From: a virus
Length of the DNA stretch: 64,000 nt
Strand: one strand, 5' to 3'
Virus record (IMG/VR): IMGVR_UViG_3300044530_000662
Location: 53,286-117,285 of that record
Part shown: one piece after another, positions 44,332 to 51,411 of the stretch
Layout of the letters: each line of letters starts with the position of its first letter
Position numbering within the stretch: the first letter of the stretch is position 1
Notes under the pieces: model-generated
What the model was told of the DNA's origin: nothing
What the model saw: the letters and a program-made list of their open reading frames with translations, nothing else
Database searches by the model: none
Translations under genes and position numbers: made by a program

Positions 44332-44532
44332 ATGAAAATATATTATGCAGAGATTACTGACTTTGCAGGCAAAGCAGTAATGAATTTAGAATACACAGCA
44401 TCAGCTAAACATAGTGCTAAGCTTGCTGAAATATTCATAAAGAATTGCCCACCTGCTCAAGGATTCAACATAAGGCTTGCCTTTATTGAAGCTAAGCATA
44501 TTGCAAGTATGATGAATAACTATAGAGGATAA
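44332..44532 (+). CDS. Early cassette gene 1
   Basis: 66 aa with motif upstream and hairpin terminator over the stop codon. Confidence 0.7.
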   Translation: MKIYYAEITDFAGKAVMNLEYTASAKHSAKLAEIFIKNCPPAQGFNIRLAFIEAKHIASMMNNYRG

Positions 44533-44585
44533 ACCTCTATAGTTTTTTTATTAGCAACTTCTATTGTATTATAAAACTATATGCT

Positions 44586-44753
44586 ATGAAATACAAGATT
44601 CAATTCCACATAGTTTCTGTTGATGAGATTAAATCTATACAACAGAAACTAAATACTTGGCTTACTACAGGCCATATGAAAAAGTTTGAAACATTTGTTC
44701 TACCTGATGGAAGACTTCTGTTTCAATGCTTAGTGTTAAAATCAGAGGAGTAA
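44586..44753 (+). CDS. Early cassette gene 2 (55 aa)
   Basis: Read manually: MKYKIQFHIVSVDEIKSIQQKLNTWL...KSEE. Confidence 0.7.
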   Translation: MKYKIQFHIVSVDEIKSIQQKLNTWLTTGHMKKFETFVLPDGRLLFQCLVLKSEE

Positions 44754-44805
44754 TCCTCTGTTTTTTTTCTGCATAACAACTTTTATTATATAAGAAATAT
44801 ATACT

Positions 44806-44988
44806 ATGACTGCAAACCAACTATTTGATTTAGCTGAAACGCTAGATAAAGCAATTGCTACCTTAGAAACAGAAGGTAAGACATTTAAAGAAAGATGTGA
44901 ACTAGCTGATTTAAAAGCATATAGAGCCTATGTTCAAGAAGGTATTGAAGCTGTTATATCAGCAATGGAGAGTAATACAGGGGAATAA
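44806..44988 (+). CDS. Early cassette gene 3 (helical hairpin)
   Basis: 60 aa with cassette architecture. Confidence 0.7.
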   Translation: MTANQLFDLAETLDKAIATLETEGKTFKERCELADLKAYRAYVQEGIEAVISAMESNTGE

Positions 44989-45038
44989 CCTGTATTACTT
45001 TTTTATTAGCAACTTTTATTATATAAGAAATATATACT

Positions 45039-45257
45039 ATGATAAAACTAATGTTTGTATGGTTGGTATTAACTGGACAAGTTAAGTATCAACAAAGTGG
45101 TGAAGATGGTAGAAAGCAATATGCTTTGTTCTTTGAAGATGGTAAAGTAATAGATTATGCTTATAAGCAAGAAATCTATGAATACATTCAAACTGGCACA
45201 TTTGAGTATGATGATACTTTGGATGACAAAGTAACAAAAGAACATAAGGGGGAGTAA
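45039..45257 (+). CDS. Early cassette gene 4
   Basis: 72 aa with a hydrophobic N-terminus and cassette architecture. Confidence 0.7.
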   Translation: MIKLMFVWLVLTGQVKYQQSGEDGRKQYALFFEDGKVIDYAYKQEIYEYIQTGTFEYDDTLDDKVTKEHKGE

Positions 45258-45307
45258 TCTCCCTTTTTTTCTTAAGCAACTTTTATTGCAATAAAAATAT
45301 ATACACT

Positions 45308-45499
45308 ATGATAACAACATTTATTATTGAGCAAATAGAACAGATTGAAGGAATTCTGATTCTATTAGGAAAACAAACTGACGCAGTTGTGTTAAAAGCA
45401 TTTGAGCAATTACCTGAAAAGGAAATAATAGCTTACAGAGATTCATTAGTTCAAGAATTTGAAGTTATGAATCCGGGGAAAACTTTGTTAGTTGTATAG
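45308..45499 (+). CDS. Early cassette gene 5
   Basis: 63 aa with cassette architecture. Confidence 0.7.
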   Translation: MITTFIIEQIEQIEGILILLGKQTDAVVLKAFEQLPEKEIIAYRDSLVQEFEVMNPGKTLLVV

Positions 45500-45580
45500 T
45501 TTATGGGGGAAGCAATTCCCCTTTTTTTCTTCTATACAAAAGCAACTTTTATTGAAATAAAAATCTTAAAACCATACAAT

Positions 45581-45967
45581 ATGAAAAAGTTAGATGCTTA
45601 CAAACAAGCAAAATTAGATTACAACTTTGCTAAAGAAACAGTTAACAAACTACACGAAGTCCTTAGATTTTATGGAACAGTTGCTGTTGGTAATAGTATT
45701 ACCATTAATTCTTCAAGTTCTGATAAACAATTTGTCTACTCAGTAGGTATATTGAATAATCAAATCAATGCTTGTAAAGAATTAGGTTTAGATCCTCAAG
45801 AGTATGAAGAATCTAAAGCTACTGTTATTCAGCTTAGAGCTACAAGCAAAGATTTAGTAGCCTGGAGTGATTACGCAAATGACTTGTACACTTATATGAG
45901 TAAGGTACACAATCTTTTAGATAAAGATGAGTTGTTCAAGTTAATTGAGATTCCTGTTAGACCGTAA
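45581..45967 (+). CDS. Early cassette gene 6 (start 45581, 128 aa)
   Basis: The ORF-track start at 45503 lies inside the previous terminator; the ATG after the motif is at 45581. Confidence 0.7.
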   Translation: MKKLDAYKQAKLDYNFAKETVNKLHEVLRFYGTVAVGNSITINSSSSDKQFVYSVGILNNQINACKELGLDPQEYEESKATVIQLRATSKDLVAWSDYANDLYTYMSKVHNLLDKDELFKLIEIPVRP

Positions 45968-46045
45968 TAATATAAGGGTGTGTAGAAATACATACCCTTT
46001 ATTATTTTACACAAGCAACTTTTATTTAATCTTAAATTATATACT

Positions 46046-46195
46046 ATGGACAAAGTAACAATTGTGATCAGTTGGGAAGAGTATGAAACTATGATCAGTG
46101 CTATTAAAGCAATGAAGAATATGGTAGACAGTGACAAGTTAGATCAACTCTATGTAAAGTTATACATTGAAAGAAAAGTAGAGAAAGGGAAGTAA
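46046..46195 (+). CDS. Early cassette gene 7 (49 aa)
   Basis: Read manually: MDKVTIVISWEEYETMISAIKAMK...EKGK. Confidence 0.7.
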   Translation: MDKVTIVISWEEYETMISAIKAMKNMVDSDKLDQLYVKLYIERKVEKGK

Positions 46196-46263
46196 TTCCC
46201 TTTTTTTAAGCCTTCGGCTAGCCTATAGCAACTTCTATTTTACTAGAATTAAAACTATATATT

Positions 46264-46689
46264 ATGAACAAAATTATTGAAGTAGCCTTAAAAGGCAGAT
46301 TTAGTACTGATGATGTAACAAGCTTAATGGACGTAGTAACTGCTACACCTAATCCTGAAATGGCAACAGAGATTCTGTTAGGTGTCTATGTAAAACCTGA
46401 TCTTCCTAATGTTGTTGTTACAGATCAAGGATTAGAAAAGACTGTGGTTAGTGTTGACTATTGGACTAATTATGTTACTTATTCTTATCAAGAAGAAGTA
46501 AGAAAACAGTTCTATATTGACAAAGACACTGACACAAGTTTAATTACTCTTGACAATTACAAGGATTATGAAAGAAGATATGATGATGATAATATCAGAT
46601 CCTTTTATCTTCCAACAGGAGAAATTAAAACTAGAAAATCAAATTGTAGTTTTGGTGATTGGTTATCACAAGAAGCATTAGCAGTTTAA
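46264..46689 (+). CDS. Early cassette gene 8
   Basis: 141 aa; N-terminal region loosely similar to 51629-52057 (PNPEMATEIL / PNGEEIAKLL). Confidence 0.7.
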   Translation: MNKIIEVALKGRFSTDDVTSLMDVVTATPNPEMATEILLGVYVKPDLPNVVVTDQGLEKTVVSVDYWTNYVTYSYQEEVRKQFYIDKDTDTSLITLDNYKDYERRYDDDNIRSFYLPTGEIKTRKSNCSFGDWLSQEALAV

Positions 46690-46865
46690 AGATAAGGGGG
46701 AGAAATCCCCTTTTCTTTTTTGTCTCCACCGTGTGGAACAAGTTGACTTTGCCACTGAAAATGAGACAGTTACAAAATGAGAGTTTTTGACTGTTAGAAG
46801 CCTACGGCTTAGCCTTTAGCAACTTTTATTGTAAGAAAATATTATTAACCCAAAAACAAAAAGTT

Positions 46866-47270
46866 ATGATTGCAAAAACAAAGATTGCGTTGTTGTTCAA
46901 AGAAGAAACAACACCTAGTGGTAATGTGCAAAAAGTTGCCAACATTAAGGCTACTCTTGTTAGGTTAAGTGATAAAGAATTCTCATATGCTAATGCAGAC
47001 GGGGAAACTCTAACTTACAAGTTGGCTACTATTAAATTCTCTGATGCGAATGATAATAGCCACACCAAAGCTGATGTAGTAGTGTATAACACTAGTTATG
47101 AGCAAGGTATGGAAGTAGGGGAAACATACTTAGGTAAAGTTTCTAGAAGCAAAAATGCTGATGGAACTGCACGTAAACCTTGGTATACTTTATCTAGCCT
47201 TGTAGTTGCTTCTGAGAATTCTGATGAGGACTTTGAAGAGGTTGAGGTATCACAAGAGATTGGGATATAA
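46866..47270 (+). CDS. Early cassette gene 9, possible OB-fold ssDNA-binding protein
   Basis: Beta-rich core with an acidic tail (SDEDFEEVEVSQEIGI). Confidence 0.45.
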   Translation: MIAKTKIALLFKEETTPSGNVQKVANIKATLVRLSDKEFSYANADGETLTYKLATIKFSDANDNSHTKADVVVYNTSYEQGMEVGETYLGKVSRSKNADGTARKPWYTLSSLVVASENSDEDFEEVEVSQEIGI

Positions 47271-48047
47271 CAGGGATTGTAATAGGGGTGTAGAAATACA
47301 CCCTTATTATTTTAGTAAAGCTATACTAAGTATAGTGTATATAGTATGTTTAATTGTCTTTCAGACAATAGCCTTTTGCAACTTTAATTGTAAGAGAAAG
47401 AGTTTGACTGCTTGTGCGGTCAAGCAACGGTCATTCACCGGTCAATGAGTGGCACATTACTAGTATGTGGAGTGTTGGGTACAGATATAAGAATGTCTGT
47501 ATTATAGGTATGAATAGTTGTTATAGTTAACACTAAATAATTACTGAAAGCTAGTGTCAGTGAGGGATTGGGTGTAATACCCTCAGTCATTCTTTACTAG
47601 TGATGATAACACTACTTTTACCATACAGGCTTAGCTCTACACATTATATGGCTAACACAGTGTCTATATTACCTACTCTTACTCTTATTACTATTAGTGT
47701 TACTATCTCTTATAGTATTATATAAAGTATCACAGTATAAGCTTCCGGGATTACAGTAATTTCCGGTCATAAAGTCCTATTGTAGCATAGTTAACACAGC
47801 AGATAGGCATTACCTGTATTCCTGAGTATGAATCAAAACTACTCTTATTTACTAATCAGTATCCTTGAACAAATGATAGGAACAGATTAAACTATGTATT
47901 TCAATAGATATGGAGAGGCAGTAATCCTCTCTGCAACTTGTACAGCTAACCAATAATGCTGTACCACAAATCTTGTAGGTTGTTAGAAACCTTCCCTTAT
48001 AAGGCTCAAGAATAACACGCTTGAGATAGGTACGTGCAGTGTGTTAT

Positions 48048-48177
48048 TACTCTCATCCAAGCAGGTAAACACAATCAGTTATGCTGAGCGTGTGGATATT
48101 ATACCAAGATAGTAGCATATGAAGCATAGTAATATGTAGAGGCTATCAAATTCAAGGATTGCAACCTTGTGAGAGTA
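48048..48177 (+). ncRNA. Structured RNA motif, copy A
   Basis: TACTCTCA/TGAGAGTA closing stem, TCCAAGCAGG, internal stems, CAAGG-ATTGCAA-CCTTG hairpin. Confidence 0.6.
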
Positions 48178-48865
48178 CACGGTCTGTCTATAATAGCAGA
48201 TAAGTCTTGCGGTTCACAACAAGATACTAACAGGTGGAAGTCCTGTTATTTATTAAACACAATTATAGTTCTTAGTGTTGAAAAAGGGATTTGAACTACC
48301 CAATTATGTACTATTTATTTAAGTTAACAGGGCATCAGTACGTGGAGTTCCTTAAGTCCAGCCAAGGTGTAATCAGGAATGATTACTAGGGTAAGACTCC
48401 ACCAGTTATTCTCAAATACTGCCACAATTTTAAAGTCTTTACATAACCTAATAAGAGAATAGGGTAAAGATTAAAAACAGTTTATTAGTTTACTATAGTG
48501 TTCTAGCACTAAAAATAACTGATGGTGTGTTATACCTAATAACAATGCTCTTGAACTTCCCGGACTCATAGAGATTAAGCATGTAAGAATCCGGGTTTCT
48601 GTTGAGCATTCAGATTCAGCTCACAGAGTGATGATTTATTATCACTAGAAAGGTAGATAAGTGTTACTTTGTAACTGCCATAGTTGGGAGATTTGTCTGG
48701 GTAGCAATACCAGATCGGACAAGTCAATGAAAGACTATGGAATGTTATAACAATATTTGTTATTGTTATTATTATTATTATAGTACCTAATGAATCTGAT
48801 TTGACCACAAGGTTTCAGGCTTAAACTCTCATCCTGTAAAGCAGAGTTTGACTTGTGGTTTTTTA

Positions 48866-48975
48866 TACTCTCATCCAAGCAGGATAGAGACTATTGCAAA
48901 ACTAAGTTGGGTGAGGCTAACCTGTAAAACTGCACTTATGAGTAATAGTCCAAGGGTTGCAACCTTGTGAGAGTA
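48866..48975 (+). ncRNA. Structured RNA motif, copy B
   Basis: Same 5' TACTCTCATCCAAGCAGG and 3' CAAGG-GTTGCAA-CCTTGTGAGAGTA; different interior with a GACTATTGC/GTAATAGTC stem. Confidence 0.6.
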
Positions 48976-49063
48976 CTAATAAGTAGGTTTGTGTTGCAAA
49001 TGCAGCAATTTAAGGAAATGTAATTGTAAAGGATCGCAACCTTTTTACAGAGTACTACTACTT

Positions 49064-49165
49064 ATTTTTAATGCACCACAACTCACTTCCCAAGGGTGAG
49101 CAGTTGTAGTATGGGTGTGCCCTACTAACAAAAACAAGGACTACAACTGAGTGCAGAGGGATTAT
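49064..49165 (+). ncRNA. Twister-like self-cleaving ribozyme (P5 present, P1 weak)
   Basis: U^AA-UGCA-CC, P4 CUCAC/GUGAG around (U)UCCCAAGG, P5 CAGUUGUAGU/ACUACAACUG, UGCA-GA-GGGA. T1 UCCC/GGGA; T2 CC/GG. Confidence 0.55.
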
Positions 49166-49202
49166 TAATTTGTAACTTATTAATTAACTTAAAACTATAC
49201 TT

Positions 49203-49409
49203 ATGATTAAAGTAACTAAACAAGAAGCAATTGATATGCTATTAGCTAACAATTACAGAGCAATTGAAATTCTTGAAACATGTGACCATGATGGTGAAGA
49301 TGAAGATGTATTTGTTACAATGGCTTATGTAGATAAATCACATAAACATGTACCATTAAAAGTGTTAAAACAAAACATGGATATGTATGATTTCATATAT
49401 ATAATATAA
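49203..49409 (+). CDS. Hypothetical protein
   Basis: 68 aa with an A-rich TIR (AAAACTATACTTATG). Confidence 0.6.
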   Translation: MIKVTKQEAIDMLLANNYRAIEILETCDHDGEDEDVFVTMAYVDKSHKHVPLKVLKQNMDMYDFIYII

Positions 49410-49410
49410 T

Positions 49411-49528
49411 TAATACACCATTCTAACTTAGGTTAGACAGTTGTAATACCTTCGGACTGCTGTGTATACGCAAGGTCTTGTAGAAGTAATCAAGCAGGGA
49501 ATGCTTCTATTACAACTGTGGTGTATTA
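49411..49528 (+). ncRNA. Three-way-junction element related in outline to the twister-like RNA
   Basis: TAATACACCA/TGGTGTATTA, TCTAAC/GTTAGA, CAGTTGTAAT/ATTACAACTG. Confidence 0.45.
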
Positions 49529-49736
49529 ATTTATACTGGGAGCATGTGACCATGAAAGAGGCATGCATATTTACTCTAATTAGGCACAAGTATGACTCTA
49601 AGTGCCGAGCTACCTAGGGAGTTGAGTTACCCGATTTATTATGAGAACTGAAAAAGATTGTCCGTTTATAGTGCGGGGCTGAGAAGATCTGTAAGCCAAC
49701 ACTATTTCTTTTGATTATTAACTCTGATTAAAAATT

Positions 49737-49940
49737 ATGAAAATGAAGAAAATGAGTCAACACACCTGGGAAATATGGTTCCTGGGATCAATATTTGGTT
49801 GCATAGTGCCTATGTTGGCAGTTATGTGTGAATCAAGAGATCCACAAGTTATGAAATATGCTACTATAGCGTTAGTAATTTCTTTTATCTCTTTTATTTT
49901 ATGTGTTATTGTTGGTAATAAAACTGAAAACAAATTATGA
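49737..49940 (+). CDS. Two-TM membrane protein
   Basis: 67 aa, hydrophobic. Confidence 0.6.
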   Translation: MKMKKMSQHTWEIWFLGSIFGCIVPMLAVMCESRDPQVMKYATIALVISFISFILCVIVGNKTENKL

Positions 49941-50122
49941 AAAAACAAACCATTTACCTTAGTCTAAGTTTCCTGTCATTAGTTATGGCAGGAATTTCTA
50001 TGTTAGCTATGTATACTATAGCAGACAATCAAACCTTAATAGGAGCCATTATTGCTTTTACTTTATCAGTAATGATTGGTACTTTATCTATGTCATCTTA
50101 CTTACATTATAAAACACAGTAA
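49937..50122 (+). CDS. Two-TM membrane protein
   Basis: 61 aa, hydrophobic. Confidence 0.6.
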   Translation: MKKQTIYLSLSFLSLVMAGISMLAMYTIADNQTLIGAIIAFTLSVMIGTLSMSSYLHYKTQ

Positions 50123-51020: not shown

Positions 51021-51210
51021 AGAAAATGTGTTGTTCCCTTGAGAAAGGAATTATAGTATAGAAAGGTGATTAAAGATACATATCACCACAACACAGAGGC
51101 TCTCAACCTCAAGACACATAAACTTCAGTTCCCACACAGCGGTGAGATGGGCTAAGTTATATACAATTCCTCGGAGCTGGGAGTAGAAAGCTGAAGAGTG
51201 TGTCTTTTAT

Positions 51211-51295
51211 AGCAAGGTGGTGTAATTGGTAACACGGTCCTAATTTAATATGGTGAATACCAGGTCTAGTATCTGTTCAAATCAGATCCTTGCTA
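51211..51295 (+). tRNA. tRNA-like element with an aberrant, expanded anticodon arm (isotype not assignable)
   Basis: Acceptor AGCAAGG/CCTTGCT, D-arm GTGT-AATTGGTA-ACAC, T-arm ATCTG-TTCAAAT-CAGAT. The 34 nt between these arms do not form a canonical 7-nt anticodon loop; no CCA. Confidence 0.55.
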
Positions 51296-51411
51296 CAGTT
51301 GCAACAGTGCAACTTTGCCTTACCCTGACAGGAACAAAAACCTAGAGGCTTAAAAGTGGGTGACAGCTGGAAAGACAGCATTTTTTATTTATAAACTGTA
51401 ATATCAAAGCA

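Follow-up and report, generated by a model that had tools for sequence, protein, structure and literature searches.

Positions 47,271 to 49,736 of the DNA studied here, an island in the early-gene region of a phage, are probably, if by no means certainly, a non-coding array of several small, modular, fast-evolving noncoding RNAs (ncRNAs) that is processed by a ribozyme and directed at the host. The window, meaning the whole stretch that was analyzed, is 64,000 nucleotides long and forms the right-hand 64 kb of a 117,285-bp IMG/VR virus record (IMGVR_UViG_3300044530_000662) with a completeness rating of 99%. Within it, the island is free of genes apart from one short reading frame, it carries families of motifs whose base pairing covaries and works on the gene strand, and its modules are shuffled from one related phage to the next. 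We infer from this that the array is transcribed and cleaves itself. Its variable arms would be working parts that act on host factors early in infection, either in takeover or in counter-defense.

The initial annotation, made from the letters alone, had described the island as holding a single credible gene in an otherwise tightly packed genome, and both points stand. The sole plus-strand open reading frame (ORF) of at least 60 aa in 47271-49736 is 49203-49409 (68 aa); elsewhere ORFs cover most of the window, with shorter ones on the plus strand. No credible ORF is found in 47271-49202 or 49410-49736 under code 11, or with TAG read as glutamine or TGA as tryptophan. When TAG or TGA is read as sense, the longest ORF in the ORF-free stretches has 62 aa (97 aa on the minus strand). 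Reading TAA as glutamine yields only minus-strand frames of up to 164 aa, each of which needs four to five reassigned stops. All three alternative codes were rejected, as none of them opens a gene. A 77-aa minus-strand ORF at 48575-48808 is not intact in L119 (related loci are cited by such numbers), a relative with 90% identity in which two 1-nt indels break the frame.

Known families do not account for the island either. Rfam gives no match in the window at the gathering score or over 47000-50000 at E<=10, and in 11 related loci it gives nothing beyond the ordinary tRNAs of the relatives. ARAGORN finds only a tRNA-like gene at 51211-51296 and nothing in the island, blastn against 50,697 GenBank phage records returns no match, and a PHROGs search with the small ORFs finds nothing. 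A literature text search for the core motifs brought up chance primer matches only.

The first motif family is visible as a repeat. Two copies of a pair of boxes, 5' TACTCTCATCCAAGCAGG and 3' CAAGGRTTGCAACCTTGTGAGAGTAC, lie at 48048-48178 and 48866-48976. The 5' box, an 18-mer, occurs exactly in 115 IMG/VR viral contigs, with the 3' box almost always 65-250 nt downstream and very different sequence between the two from contig to contig. A pattern that omits the closing helix (TCCAAGCAGG, 45-75 nt, AAGGRTTGCAACCTT) is present in 96 viral contigs, 16 of which have different closing helices. The shared structure is called the frame here, and the island contains the following copies:

48048-48178, plus strand: frame element 1 (R1 covariance model, 60.8 bits)
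48866-48976, plus strand: frame element 2, whose frame is that of element 1 but whose 65-nt arm is unrelated (R1, 73.9 bits; a member of alignment A1, described below)
48977-49068, plus strand: a module closed by AAUAAGUAG/CUACUUAUU that holds a third, partial frame copy (R1 matches part of it, 48982-49044, at 19.8 bits)

Frame element 1 comprises U(-1), a closing helix P1 (ACUCUCA/UGAGAGU), a junction of U followed by CCAAGCAGG, an 85-nt variable arm, a hairpin P3 (CAAGG-AUUGCAA-CCUUG), and a tail of AC; its insert family has 10 covarying variants in other contigs. The module at 48977-49068 counts as a partial copy because of its frame-type hairpin, AAAGG-AUCGCAA-CCUUU, and this same module comes after frame elements in L006, L080, and L096. 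The R1 model finds 105 copies in 99 related stretches; in the whole genome of this phage it finds only the two island copies and the partial third.

In alignment A1, which consists of 24 frame sequences, the 7-bp P1 shows 100% pairing, with double-sided changes at six of the seven pairs. This covariation is matched by none of 500 shuffles, and sliding the partner strand lowers pairing to 35-57%. The variants of P1 include ACUCUCA/UGAGAGU, GUUCUCU/AGAGAAC, ACUCUUG/CAAGAGU, ACUCCUA/UAGGAGU, and UCUCUCA/UGAGAGA. There are also G-U intermediates (ACUCUUG/UGAGAGU in L137; UAAGG/CCUUG in 12 loci), so that only the gene strand can maintain the pairing. Helix lengths of 7 bp and 5 bp and a loop of 7 nt, the dimensions of an acceptor and a T stem, are kept in all 24 rows. 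The junction U-CCAAGCAGG, the inner four P3 pairs, the loop RUUGCAA, and the AC tail are invariant, about 27 nucleotides overall.

The frame is also pseudoknotted. The junction CCAAGCAGG is complementary to the UUGCAA of the P3 loop, giving a helix of 4-6 bp in which all cells are paired by formal count. In L125, L126, and L059, the junction is CCAAUUGCAGG, with a UU insertion that pairs with the AA of the loop, and it can pair with all six bases of UUGCAA. In L021 (junction CCAAUUGUAGG, loop AUUACAG) and L026 (junction CCAAUAGG, loop AUUAGAA), a C:G pair between junction and loop is replaced by U:A, and the insert is the same as in the canonical sister copy. These variants make the frame a three-way junction of P1, a junction strand pseudoknotted with the P3 loop, and the variable arm. 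A kissing-loop dimer through the palindromic loop UUGCAA was considered and set aside as less likely, since the junction variants show the loop pairing within the molecule. The arms themselves are not junk, because pairs change on both sides within insert families: the 79 unique elements fall into about 38 insert clusters, with compensatory double-sided changes inside clusters.

A variant 3' end of the frame is seen in seven loci (L008, L012, L019, L023, L042, L047, and L112; e.g., L019:1193-1308, minus strand). There, P3 is followed by an extra hairpin, CUUAUA..UAUAAG, and then by UUGGAUGAGAGU plus U5. The UUGGAUGAGAGU segment pairs with the 5'-end ACUCUCAUCCAA, and the resulting 12-bp closure, which takes in part of the pseudoknot strand, looks like a terminator.

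The second motif family begins where the partial third frame copy ends:

49069-49160, plus strand: twister-like ribozyme candidate (R2 model, 97.1 bits; covariation; features compared with those in PMC5408937)
49407-49531, plus strand: a diverged relative of this element (R2, 24.5 bits, E 4.5e-5; minimum free energy (MFE) z -5.9; inverted repeats I2 and I5)

The twister-like element has P2 UGCA/UGCA, P4 CUCAC/GUGAG with loop L4 UUCCCAAGG, P5 AGUUGUAGU/ACUACAACU with a variable tip, and a 3' GAGGG, and the cut site is predicted to lie between U49069 and A49070. Apart from the frame, 49064-49166 is the piece most widely common to other loci. Its relatives consist of a 5' part, UAAUGCACC-N4-P4 with loop UUCCCAAGG, a middle stem, AGUUGUAAU/AUUACAACU, around 10-170 variable nucleotides, and a 3' part, GAGUGCAGAGGG. 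The R2 model finds 84 copies, the minimal ones 66-74 nt long. Across 78 distinct copies, pairing in P2 stands at 98.6%, and eight of these copies have U:A in place of C:G. The model-fitted alignment gives 95.8% pairing for P4, where five of five pairs covary, and 96.5% for P5, where nine of nine do. For these helices, too, 0 of 500 shuffles reach the observed covariation.

A second, independent MAFFT alignment (A2, 19 rows) also shows covariation. The UAA that forms the U-A step and the conserved A after it is invariant in 19 of 19 rows. L4 is nearly invariant and, at 9 nt, one base longer than the twister consensus, with a closing pair that varies (CG, AU, UA), so that the invariant G-C pair of twister has no clear counterpart here. 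The CCC of L4 is complementary to the GGG of GAGGG in 98% of cells (T1). The CC that follows P2 is complementary to the last two L4 bases, GG, in 18 of 18 rows (T2); the consensus here is GC/GC, of which CC/GG could be a compensated variant. The element at 49069-49160 is thus a probable twister variant. It is called probable rather than proven because the Rfam twister models give it no score, T1 and T2 are invariant, the loop is one base longer than consensus, and self-cleavage is a prediction only.

The diverged relative at 49407-49531 keeps the 5' part, UAAUACACCAUUCUAAC, and the P5 stem; it is without the CCCAAGG loop and GAGGG and has a plain 13-bp closing helix. In two loci, pieces of the frame sit inside the P5 insert of the twister-like element (L032:12074-12210 and L106:1424-1554, both minus strand). 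Their frame-type loop hairpins are CAAAG-AUUGCAA-G..CUUUG and AAGGGUUUCCAACCU, indicating that frame pieces travel as payload too.

The arrangement of the two families is recurrent. More than 40 loci have, on one strand, genes, then a frame, then 100-300 nt of hairpin modules, then the twister-like element, with the next ORF 40-60 nt further on. Frame and twister-like element abut in L021, L040, L056, and L063, where the predicted cut site falls 1-6 nt past the frame; the reverse order occurs in L020, L032, and L137-L139. Relatives with an 88%-identical upstream gene have islands of 0.7-2.4 kb made of different modules. The joints at which relatives' contigs depart from the window (48047/48866, 48883/48951, and 49108/49142) lie exactly at frame and variable-arm borders, and so it is at the conserved frames that arms and modules are exchanged. 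The frame pattern is found in one of 185,579 prokaryote species genomes, L146 (JBIPNK010000148.1, 117,852 bp), from a Lake Mendota Chitinophagaceae metagenome-assembled genome (MAG). L146 has the size of a phage genome and represents a binned phage or, alternatively, a clue to the host.

The initial annotation had proposed one large or several ncRNAs and had suggested looking for covariation in homologous loci. That comparison comes out in favor of RNA: frame P1, the pseudoknot, and P2, P4, and P5 of the twister-like element are all compensated. The several-RNA version survives, with three modules (about 330 nt) covarying on the gene strand in 80-100 related phage contigs. The single large RNA does not, since module order and combination differ among relatives and the length of the island differs with them.

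The favored array would work as follows. The island would be transcribed on the plus strand from a phage-specific motif that appears to drive the neighboring one-gene cassettes, and the product would be a string of independently folding small RNAs. Two of these would be built on a previously undescribed frame in which a closing helix and a 3' hairpin are locked by the junction-loop pseudoknot and a hypervariable arm projects. A twister-type ribozyme at the array's 3' end would probably cut at U49069/A49070, freeing the upstream RNAs and leaving a 5'-OH on the downstream one. Related phages would trade arms and whole modules through recombination at the conserved frames. The joining of a ribozyme-flanked RNA by RtcB, in repair or circularization, was considered and rejected: the phage has no RtcB, Rnl-type RNA ligase, or CCA-adding enzyme, although a host enzyme could serve.

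Three readings of the frame itself are not separable here: it could be a handle for processing, a ribozyme of a new kind, or a scaffold for binding. The first is doubtful but not negligible. It would make the frame a tRNA-shaped mimic of the acceptor/T-arm minihelix, from which host RNase P and the 3' tRNA-processing enzymes excise the framed RNAs. Helices of 7 bp and 5 bp with a 7-nt loop, an invariant U8, a mostly U N(-1), and a conserved AC tail after the helix all suit such a handle, but T-loop UUCRANY, D arm, and anticodon arm are not found in the frame. A reading of its hairpin as a T-loop was rejected on sequence, as RUUGCAA is without U54-A58 and C56. The contact of junction and loop recalls that of D loop and T loop, yet it consists of 4-6 Watson-Crick pairs, unlike any tRNA. 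ARAGORN and the Rfam models for tRNA and transfer-messenger RNA (tmRNA) do not detect the frame; also, CCA is not encoded, and the phage could not add it with an enzyme of its own. The genomic setting is friendlier to a handle: true tRNA genes lie in the early regions of relatives, ribozymes that trim the 3' ends of phage tRNAs are known (PMC10879173), and the twister-like cut would fall just past the frame in the four abutting loci.

Less likely is that the frame is a new self-cleaving or otherwise catalytic RNA, with the pseudoknotted core as its active site and the arm as a dispensable peripheral stem. The gathering of some 27 invariant nucleotides in junction and loop, between helices that covary, speaks for this, although the invariance may merely reflect a narrow phage lineage. 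A peripheral stem of varying length has a parallel in twister P3/P5, which are without consensus (PMC11662667), but the arms here have covariation and conserved loops of their own, suggesting that they matter. A twister-type element nearby is the context in which pistol, hatchet, and twister-sister were discovered (PMC6154101, PMC5737381); against this, other conserved motifs adjacent to ribozymes failed to cleave when tested (PMC5737381). The loop core UGCAA resembles GUGCAAGUC of twister-sister SL4. However, no known ribozyme model matches: for pistol, hatchet, twister-sister, hammerhead, and ribozymes like that of hepatitis delta virus (HDV), Rfam gives nothing for the frame at E<=10 over 47000-50000. 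The strand order P1, pseudoknot strand, arm, P3 enclosing the second pseudoknot strand, and P1' fits no class in the descriptions compared.

A minor possibility, which takes in the third reading, is that the CCAAGCAGG/UUGCAA frame founds a new functional RNA class, either a self-cleaving or self-processing ribozyme or a display scaffold for a library of hypervariable arms. As a scaffold, it may present at least 38 arm families, exchanged at the frame, as decoys, sponges, or aptamers against host defense or other host factors.

The setting of the island fits an early-gene region. The phage sequence has about 32% GC and is contained in lake-water and freshwater metagenome DNA runs. The host is probably a member of the Bacteroidota, perhaps of the Chitinophagaceae. 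Portal, large terminase, and major head genes are on the minus strand, which is mostly filled by ORFs of at least 100 aa up to about 43.5 kb; beyond, the plus strand has many shorter ORFs, and a series of small plus-strand genes runs from about 44 kb onward. The motif GCAACTTyTATT stands upstream of each small gene (44554, 45009, 45276, 45542, 46015, 46228, and 46819), at a distance of 29-46 nt in these seven, and is a putative cassette promoter. Upstream of the island, each cassette consists of the motif, a gene, and then a GNRA-type hairpin with a T-run. Terminator-like hairpins on the plus strand are enriched seven-fold in 44500-46720 (22 versus 3.1 expected), and their alternation with the motif points to one gene per cassette. 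Two observations of the initial annotation fit in here: a CAACTT copy with no ORF behind it is indeed found past the terminator of the 134-aa gene, as GCAACTT at 47378, and the variant it placed near 47934 is GCAACTTGTACAG at 47933. The remaining features in and next to the island are as follows:

47284-47313, plus strand: terminator hairpin of the 134-aa gene (46866-47270), GGGGTGT/ACACCC plus a T-run, from sequence
47378-47390, plus strand: promoter-like motif GCAACTTTAATTG, common to the seven small genes, with no ORF behind it
47391-47932, plus strand: leader modules forming a chain of hairpins (47390-47500, z -3.1)
47933-48047, plus strand: variant motif GCAACTTGTACAG, hairpin GTACAGC/GCTGTAC, and two further hairpins, from sequence and folding
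48179-48258, plus strand: three hairpins, the last (48228-48248) with a T-rich tail and terminator-like (z -2.3)
48259-48803, plus strand: chain of hairpins including CCCGGA/UCCGGG, CUGUUGAGC/GCUCACAG, and CCAUAGU/ACUAUGG, from comparison with L119/L120
48804-48865, plus strand: long hairpin ACCACAAG/CUUGUGGU with inner stem AAACUCU/AGAGUUU, followed by U6, terminator-like, abutting frame element 2
49172-49202, plus strand: promoter-like variant GTAACTTATTAAT and leader of the 68-aa gene, from sequence
49203-49409, plus strand: 68-aa ORF, the only credible gene of the island, of no known family and common to one locus only
49534-49736, plus strand: conserved non-coding leader or module before a 67-aa membrane-like ORF at 49737 (86.6% identical in L125; in 4-8 loci)

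Conservation varies along this list. The start of the leader modules, 47385-47452, is about 85% conserved in L119-L123 with two compensated pairs, 47690-47960 is present in 3-11 loci, and 47450-47690 has no homologue among the loci. A GCAACTTGTACAG-type motif plus hairpin also stands 38 nt ahead of a frame element in L013, and a relative's contig has a module boundary at 48258. Segment 48477-48862 is 90% identical in L119/L120. In the comparison with L119, all 12 substitution events within predicted pairs keep pairing (three double-sided, nine one-sided through G-U), which is weak evidence, coming from two sequences and a structure picked by RNAalifold; for 48477-48865, RNA structure is suggestive only. 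The hairpin at 48804-48865 lies directly 5' of frame elements in about 20 loci, and its inner stem is compensated twice in L119. AACTTAT-like motifs follow the twister-like element in many loci. The folding of 49534-49736 is unremarkable (z +1.0).

Some further repeats and tRNA-like genes deserve mention. CGGTCA occurs three times within 47417-47445 (29 nt, just past the promoter motif) and again at 47762-47768, where it ends a module (47745-47770); modules ending in CCGGTCAWW lie directly 5' of frame elements in L022, L028, L115, and L118. A 23-nt direct repeat (83% identical, core CATGTGACCATGA) links 49269-49291 in the 68-aa ORF with 49533-49555 in the downstream non-coding module. A second ORF-free stretch of about 390 nt, 51021-51411, contains TTGCAACAG repeated 2.8 times, followed by a further GCAACTT at 51309. 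It also holds the 86-nt tRNA-like gene at 51211-51296, with acceptor AGCAAGG/CCUUGCU, a good T arm (loop UUCAAAU), and an oversized middle; ARAGORN assigns it no anticodon, and it gets no match from the Rfam tRNA model at E<=1. In the relative L022 (10332-10489), an Rfam tRNA match spans 158 nt on a 71-position model, implying that about 85 nt are inserted in this tRNA gene. Small RNAs with inserts seem to be a recurring feature of this phage group.

Several observations weigh against the array as proposed. The initial annotation had argued from a density of stems, and all the stems it named are present in the sequence and in MFE folds; their presence, however, does not set the island apart from the flanks in folding energy. 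Over 120-nt sliding windows, the mean folding z-score of the island, -0.88, is not below the -1.18 of the flanks (Mann-Whitney p=0.17). Stem density alone is therefore not evidence, and covariation in relatives is, although a few pieces do stand out in folding (47390-47500, z -3.1; 48555-48650, z -3.0; 48675-48745, z -4.5; 49408-49531, z -5.9). About 1.3 kb of the island (47450-47690, 47960-48047, and 48180-48800) has few or no homologues, so the RNA nature of these parts rests on weak two-sequence evidence. As for the ribozyme, T1 and T2 never vary and hence provide no covariation. P1 of the twister-like element has four positions with 69% of cells paired, though there are double changes at all four and the two inner pairs are 72-83% paired. 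UCU replaces UAA in the copies of L113, L075, and L053. The Rfam models twister-P1, -P3, and -P5 give no match at the gathering score in the window and 11 loci and none at E<=10 over 126 nt. The terminator-like hairpins at 48228-48248 and 48804-48865 plus U6 speak against a single read-through precursor and may mean that the island comprises two or three transcription units. Finally, Logan contigs of relatives from two RNA-library runs overlie parts of the island, but such libraries can contain DNA, and these contigs show neither transcription nor RNA ends, just as the uncovered parts carry no meaning.

Another explanation is that the island is a long cis-acting leader of the genes at 49203 and 49737 whose structures attenuate or insulate and whose twister sets the 5' end of the mRNA. 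The position of the twister-like element, which ends 40-60 nt ahead of the next ORF in most loci, the conserved module (49534-49736) before 49737, and the terminator-like hairpins would be in keeping with this. Yet the downstream gene changes from locus to locus, the promoter-like motif at 49172 separates the twister-like element from the gene, the order with the twister first occurs as well, and 1.8 kb of leader ahead of a 68-aa gene is implausible. All told, a leader is improbable.

Very improbable is a role at the level of DNA, with the elements being MITE- or PATE-like mobile or recombination sites bounded by terminal inverted repeats, or belonging to a replication origin. The ends of the element, TACTCTCA...TGAGAGTA, are indeed inverted repeats of each other, many different flanks carry the same element, and the exchange of inserts happens exactly at the frames. 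But G-U keeps pairing on one strand only, the pseudoknot is compensated, every copy has the orientation of its flanking genes, and each genome has just two copies, whose inserts are unrelated. No target duplications were seen in the listed flanks and no transposase gene was noticed, neither having been searched for specifically. A replication origin, named in the initial annotation together with decayed genes as what might undo the RNA reading, is unlikely: there are no iterons and no AT-rich unwinding element, tandem repeats are trivial, and the GC-skew turn, at about 43-44 kb, is 3.5 kb away. That the island consists of decayed genes or neutral spacer DNA is scarcely credible, for although it is gene-poor, varies in content among relatives, and folds with an energy like that of its flanks, more than 100 contigs have invariant cores and compensatory changes and no frame opens under alternative codes, so that decayed genes are excluded for the roughly 450 nt of covarying parts.

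If the island is indeed an array of small RNAs aimed at the host, several things follow. The early regions of phages are generally interpreted as sets of small proteins, and here RNA takes up a whole cassette slot. That the frame stays fixed while its arm is different in almost all related phages points to an arms race in which RNA is the weapon; the display scaffold, if true, would be the RNA counterpart of the hypervariable protein anti-defense loci of phages. The profile of the frame (a covarying helix, a compensated pseudoknot, some 27 invariant nucleotides, a twister-type neighbor, and no Rfam match) is the one that led to pistol, hatchet, and twister-sister. The twister-like family suggests that curated models miss real variants, such as those with T2 CC/GG or large P5 inserts, and it could join ribozyme searches. 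Both families offer short constructs that can be tested directly.

Among known systems, the tRNA cluster of phage T4 includes the small stable RNAs C and D and is processed from polycistronic precursors by host RNase P. It resembles the island in being a gene-free cluster, early or middle, whose small stable RNAs are without known function, but T4 has genuine tRNAs and no ribozyme, no hypervariable arms, and no common frame. Domains shaped like tRNA are found in the tRNA-like domain (TLD) of tmRNA, in viral tRNA-like structures, and in the tRNA-microRNA chimeras of the murine herpesvirus MHV68. Like them, the frame has its two ends paired in a helix of 7 bp that stacks on a hairpin of 5 bp and 7-nt loop, a foreign domain takes the place of the anticodon arm, and the junction contacts the hairpin loop; unlike them, it has no T-loop sequence or CCA, its contact is a Watson-Crick pseudoknot, and the tRNA and tmRNA models are silent.

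GOLLD and ROOL, to which the initial annotation had compared the island, each have one conserved fold, of 580-800 nt (Weinberg et al. 2009, 2017; PMC5737381). The likeness holds for the setting, as they too are phage- or prophage-associated, lie near tRNA genes, and are without an assigned function. It does not extend to the RNAs, since the island has no Rfam match at E<=10 and is made of many 65-250-nt modules that reshuffle.

Twister ribozymes have a U-A step, a four-pair P2, a P4 whose conserved L4 is extended by an invariant G-C and a U-A pair, a T1 of three pairs between L4 and the 3' strand of L1, and a T2 in which the GC of L2 pairs with two bulged L4 nucleotides (GC/GC) (PMC5408937). 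Compared with twister of type P1 with optional P5, the element at 49069-49160 shares U-A-A at the 5' edge, the four-pair P2, a P4 loop with UCCCAAG, L4 CCC/GGG as T1, and two loop nucleotides complementary to two nucleotides after P2 as a possible T2. It also shares a variable P5 between P4 and the 3' strand of P2, a short P1, and a phage context beside structured RNAs. It differs in its T2 of CC/GG, 9-nt L4, varying closing pair, weak P1, P5 inserts of up to about 170 nt, and lack of an Rfam score, and its cleavage is predicted only.

The closest published logic, by analogy, is that of the theta ribozymes, minimal HDV-like ribozymes located next to phage tRNAs, for which a role in maturing RNA ends in place of protein enzymes has been proposed (Kienbeck et al. 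2024, PMC10879173). Theta ribozymes are HDV-like, belong to gut phages, and accompany real, often suppressor, tRNAs, whereas the island pairs a twister-like element with a non-tRNA frame in lake phages in which no recoding is seen. In both, a small self-cleaving class, here a predicted one, has its cut site right beside small structured RNAs of a phage.

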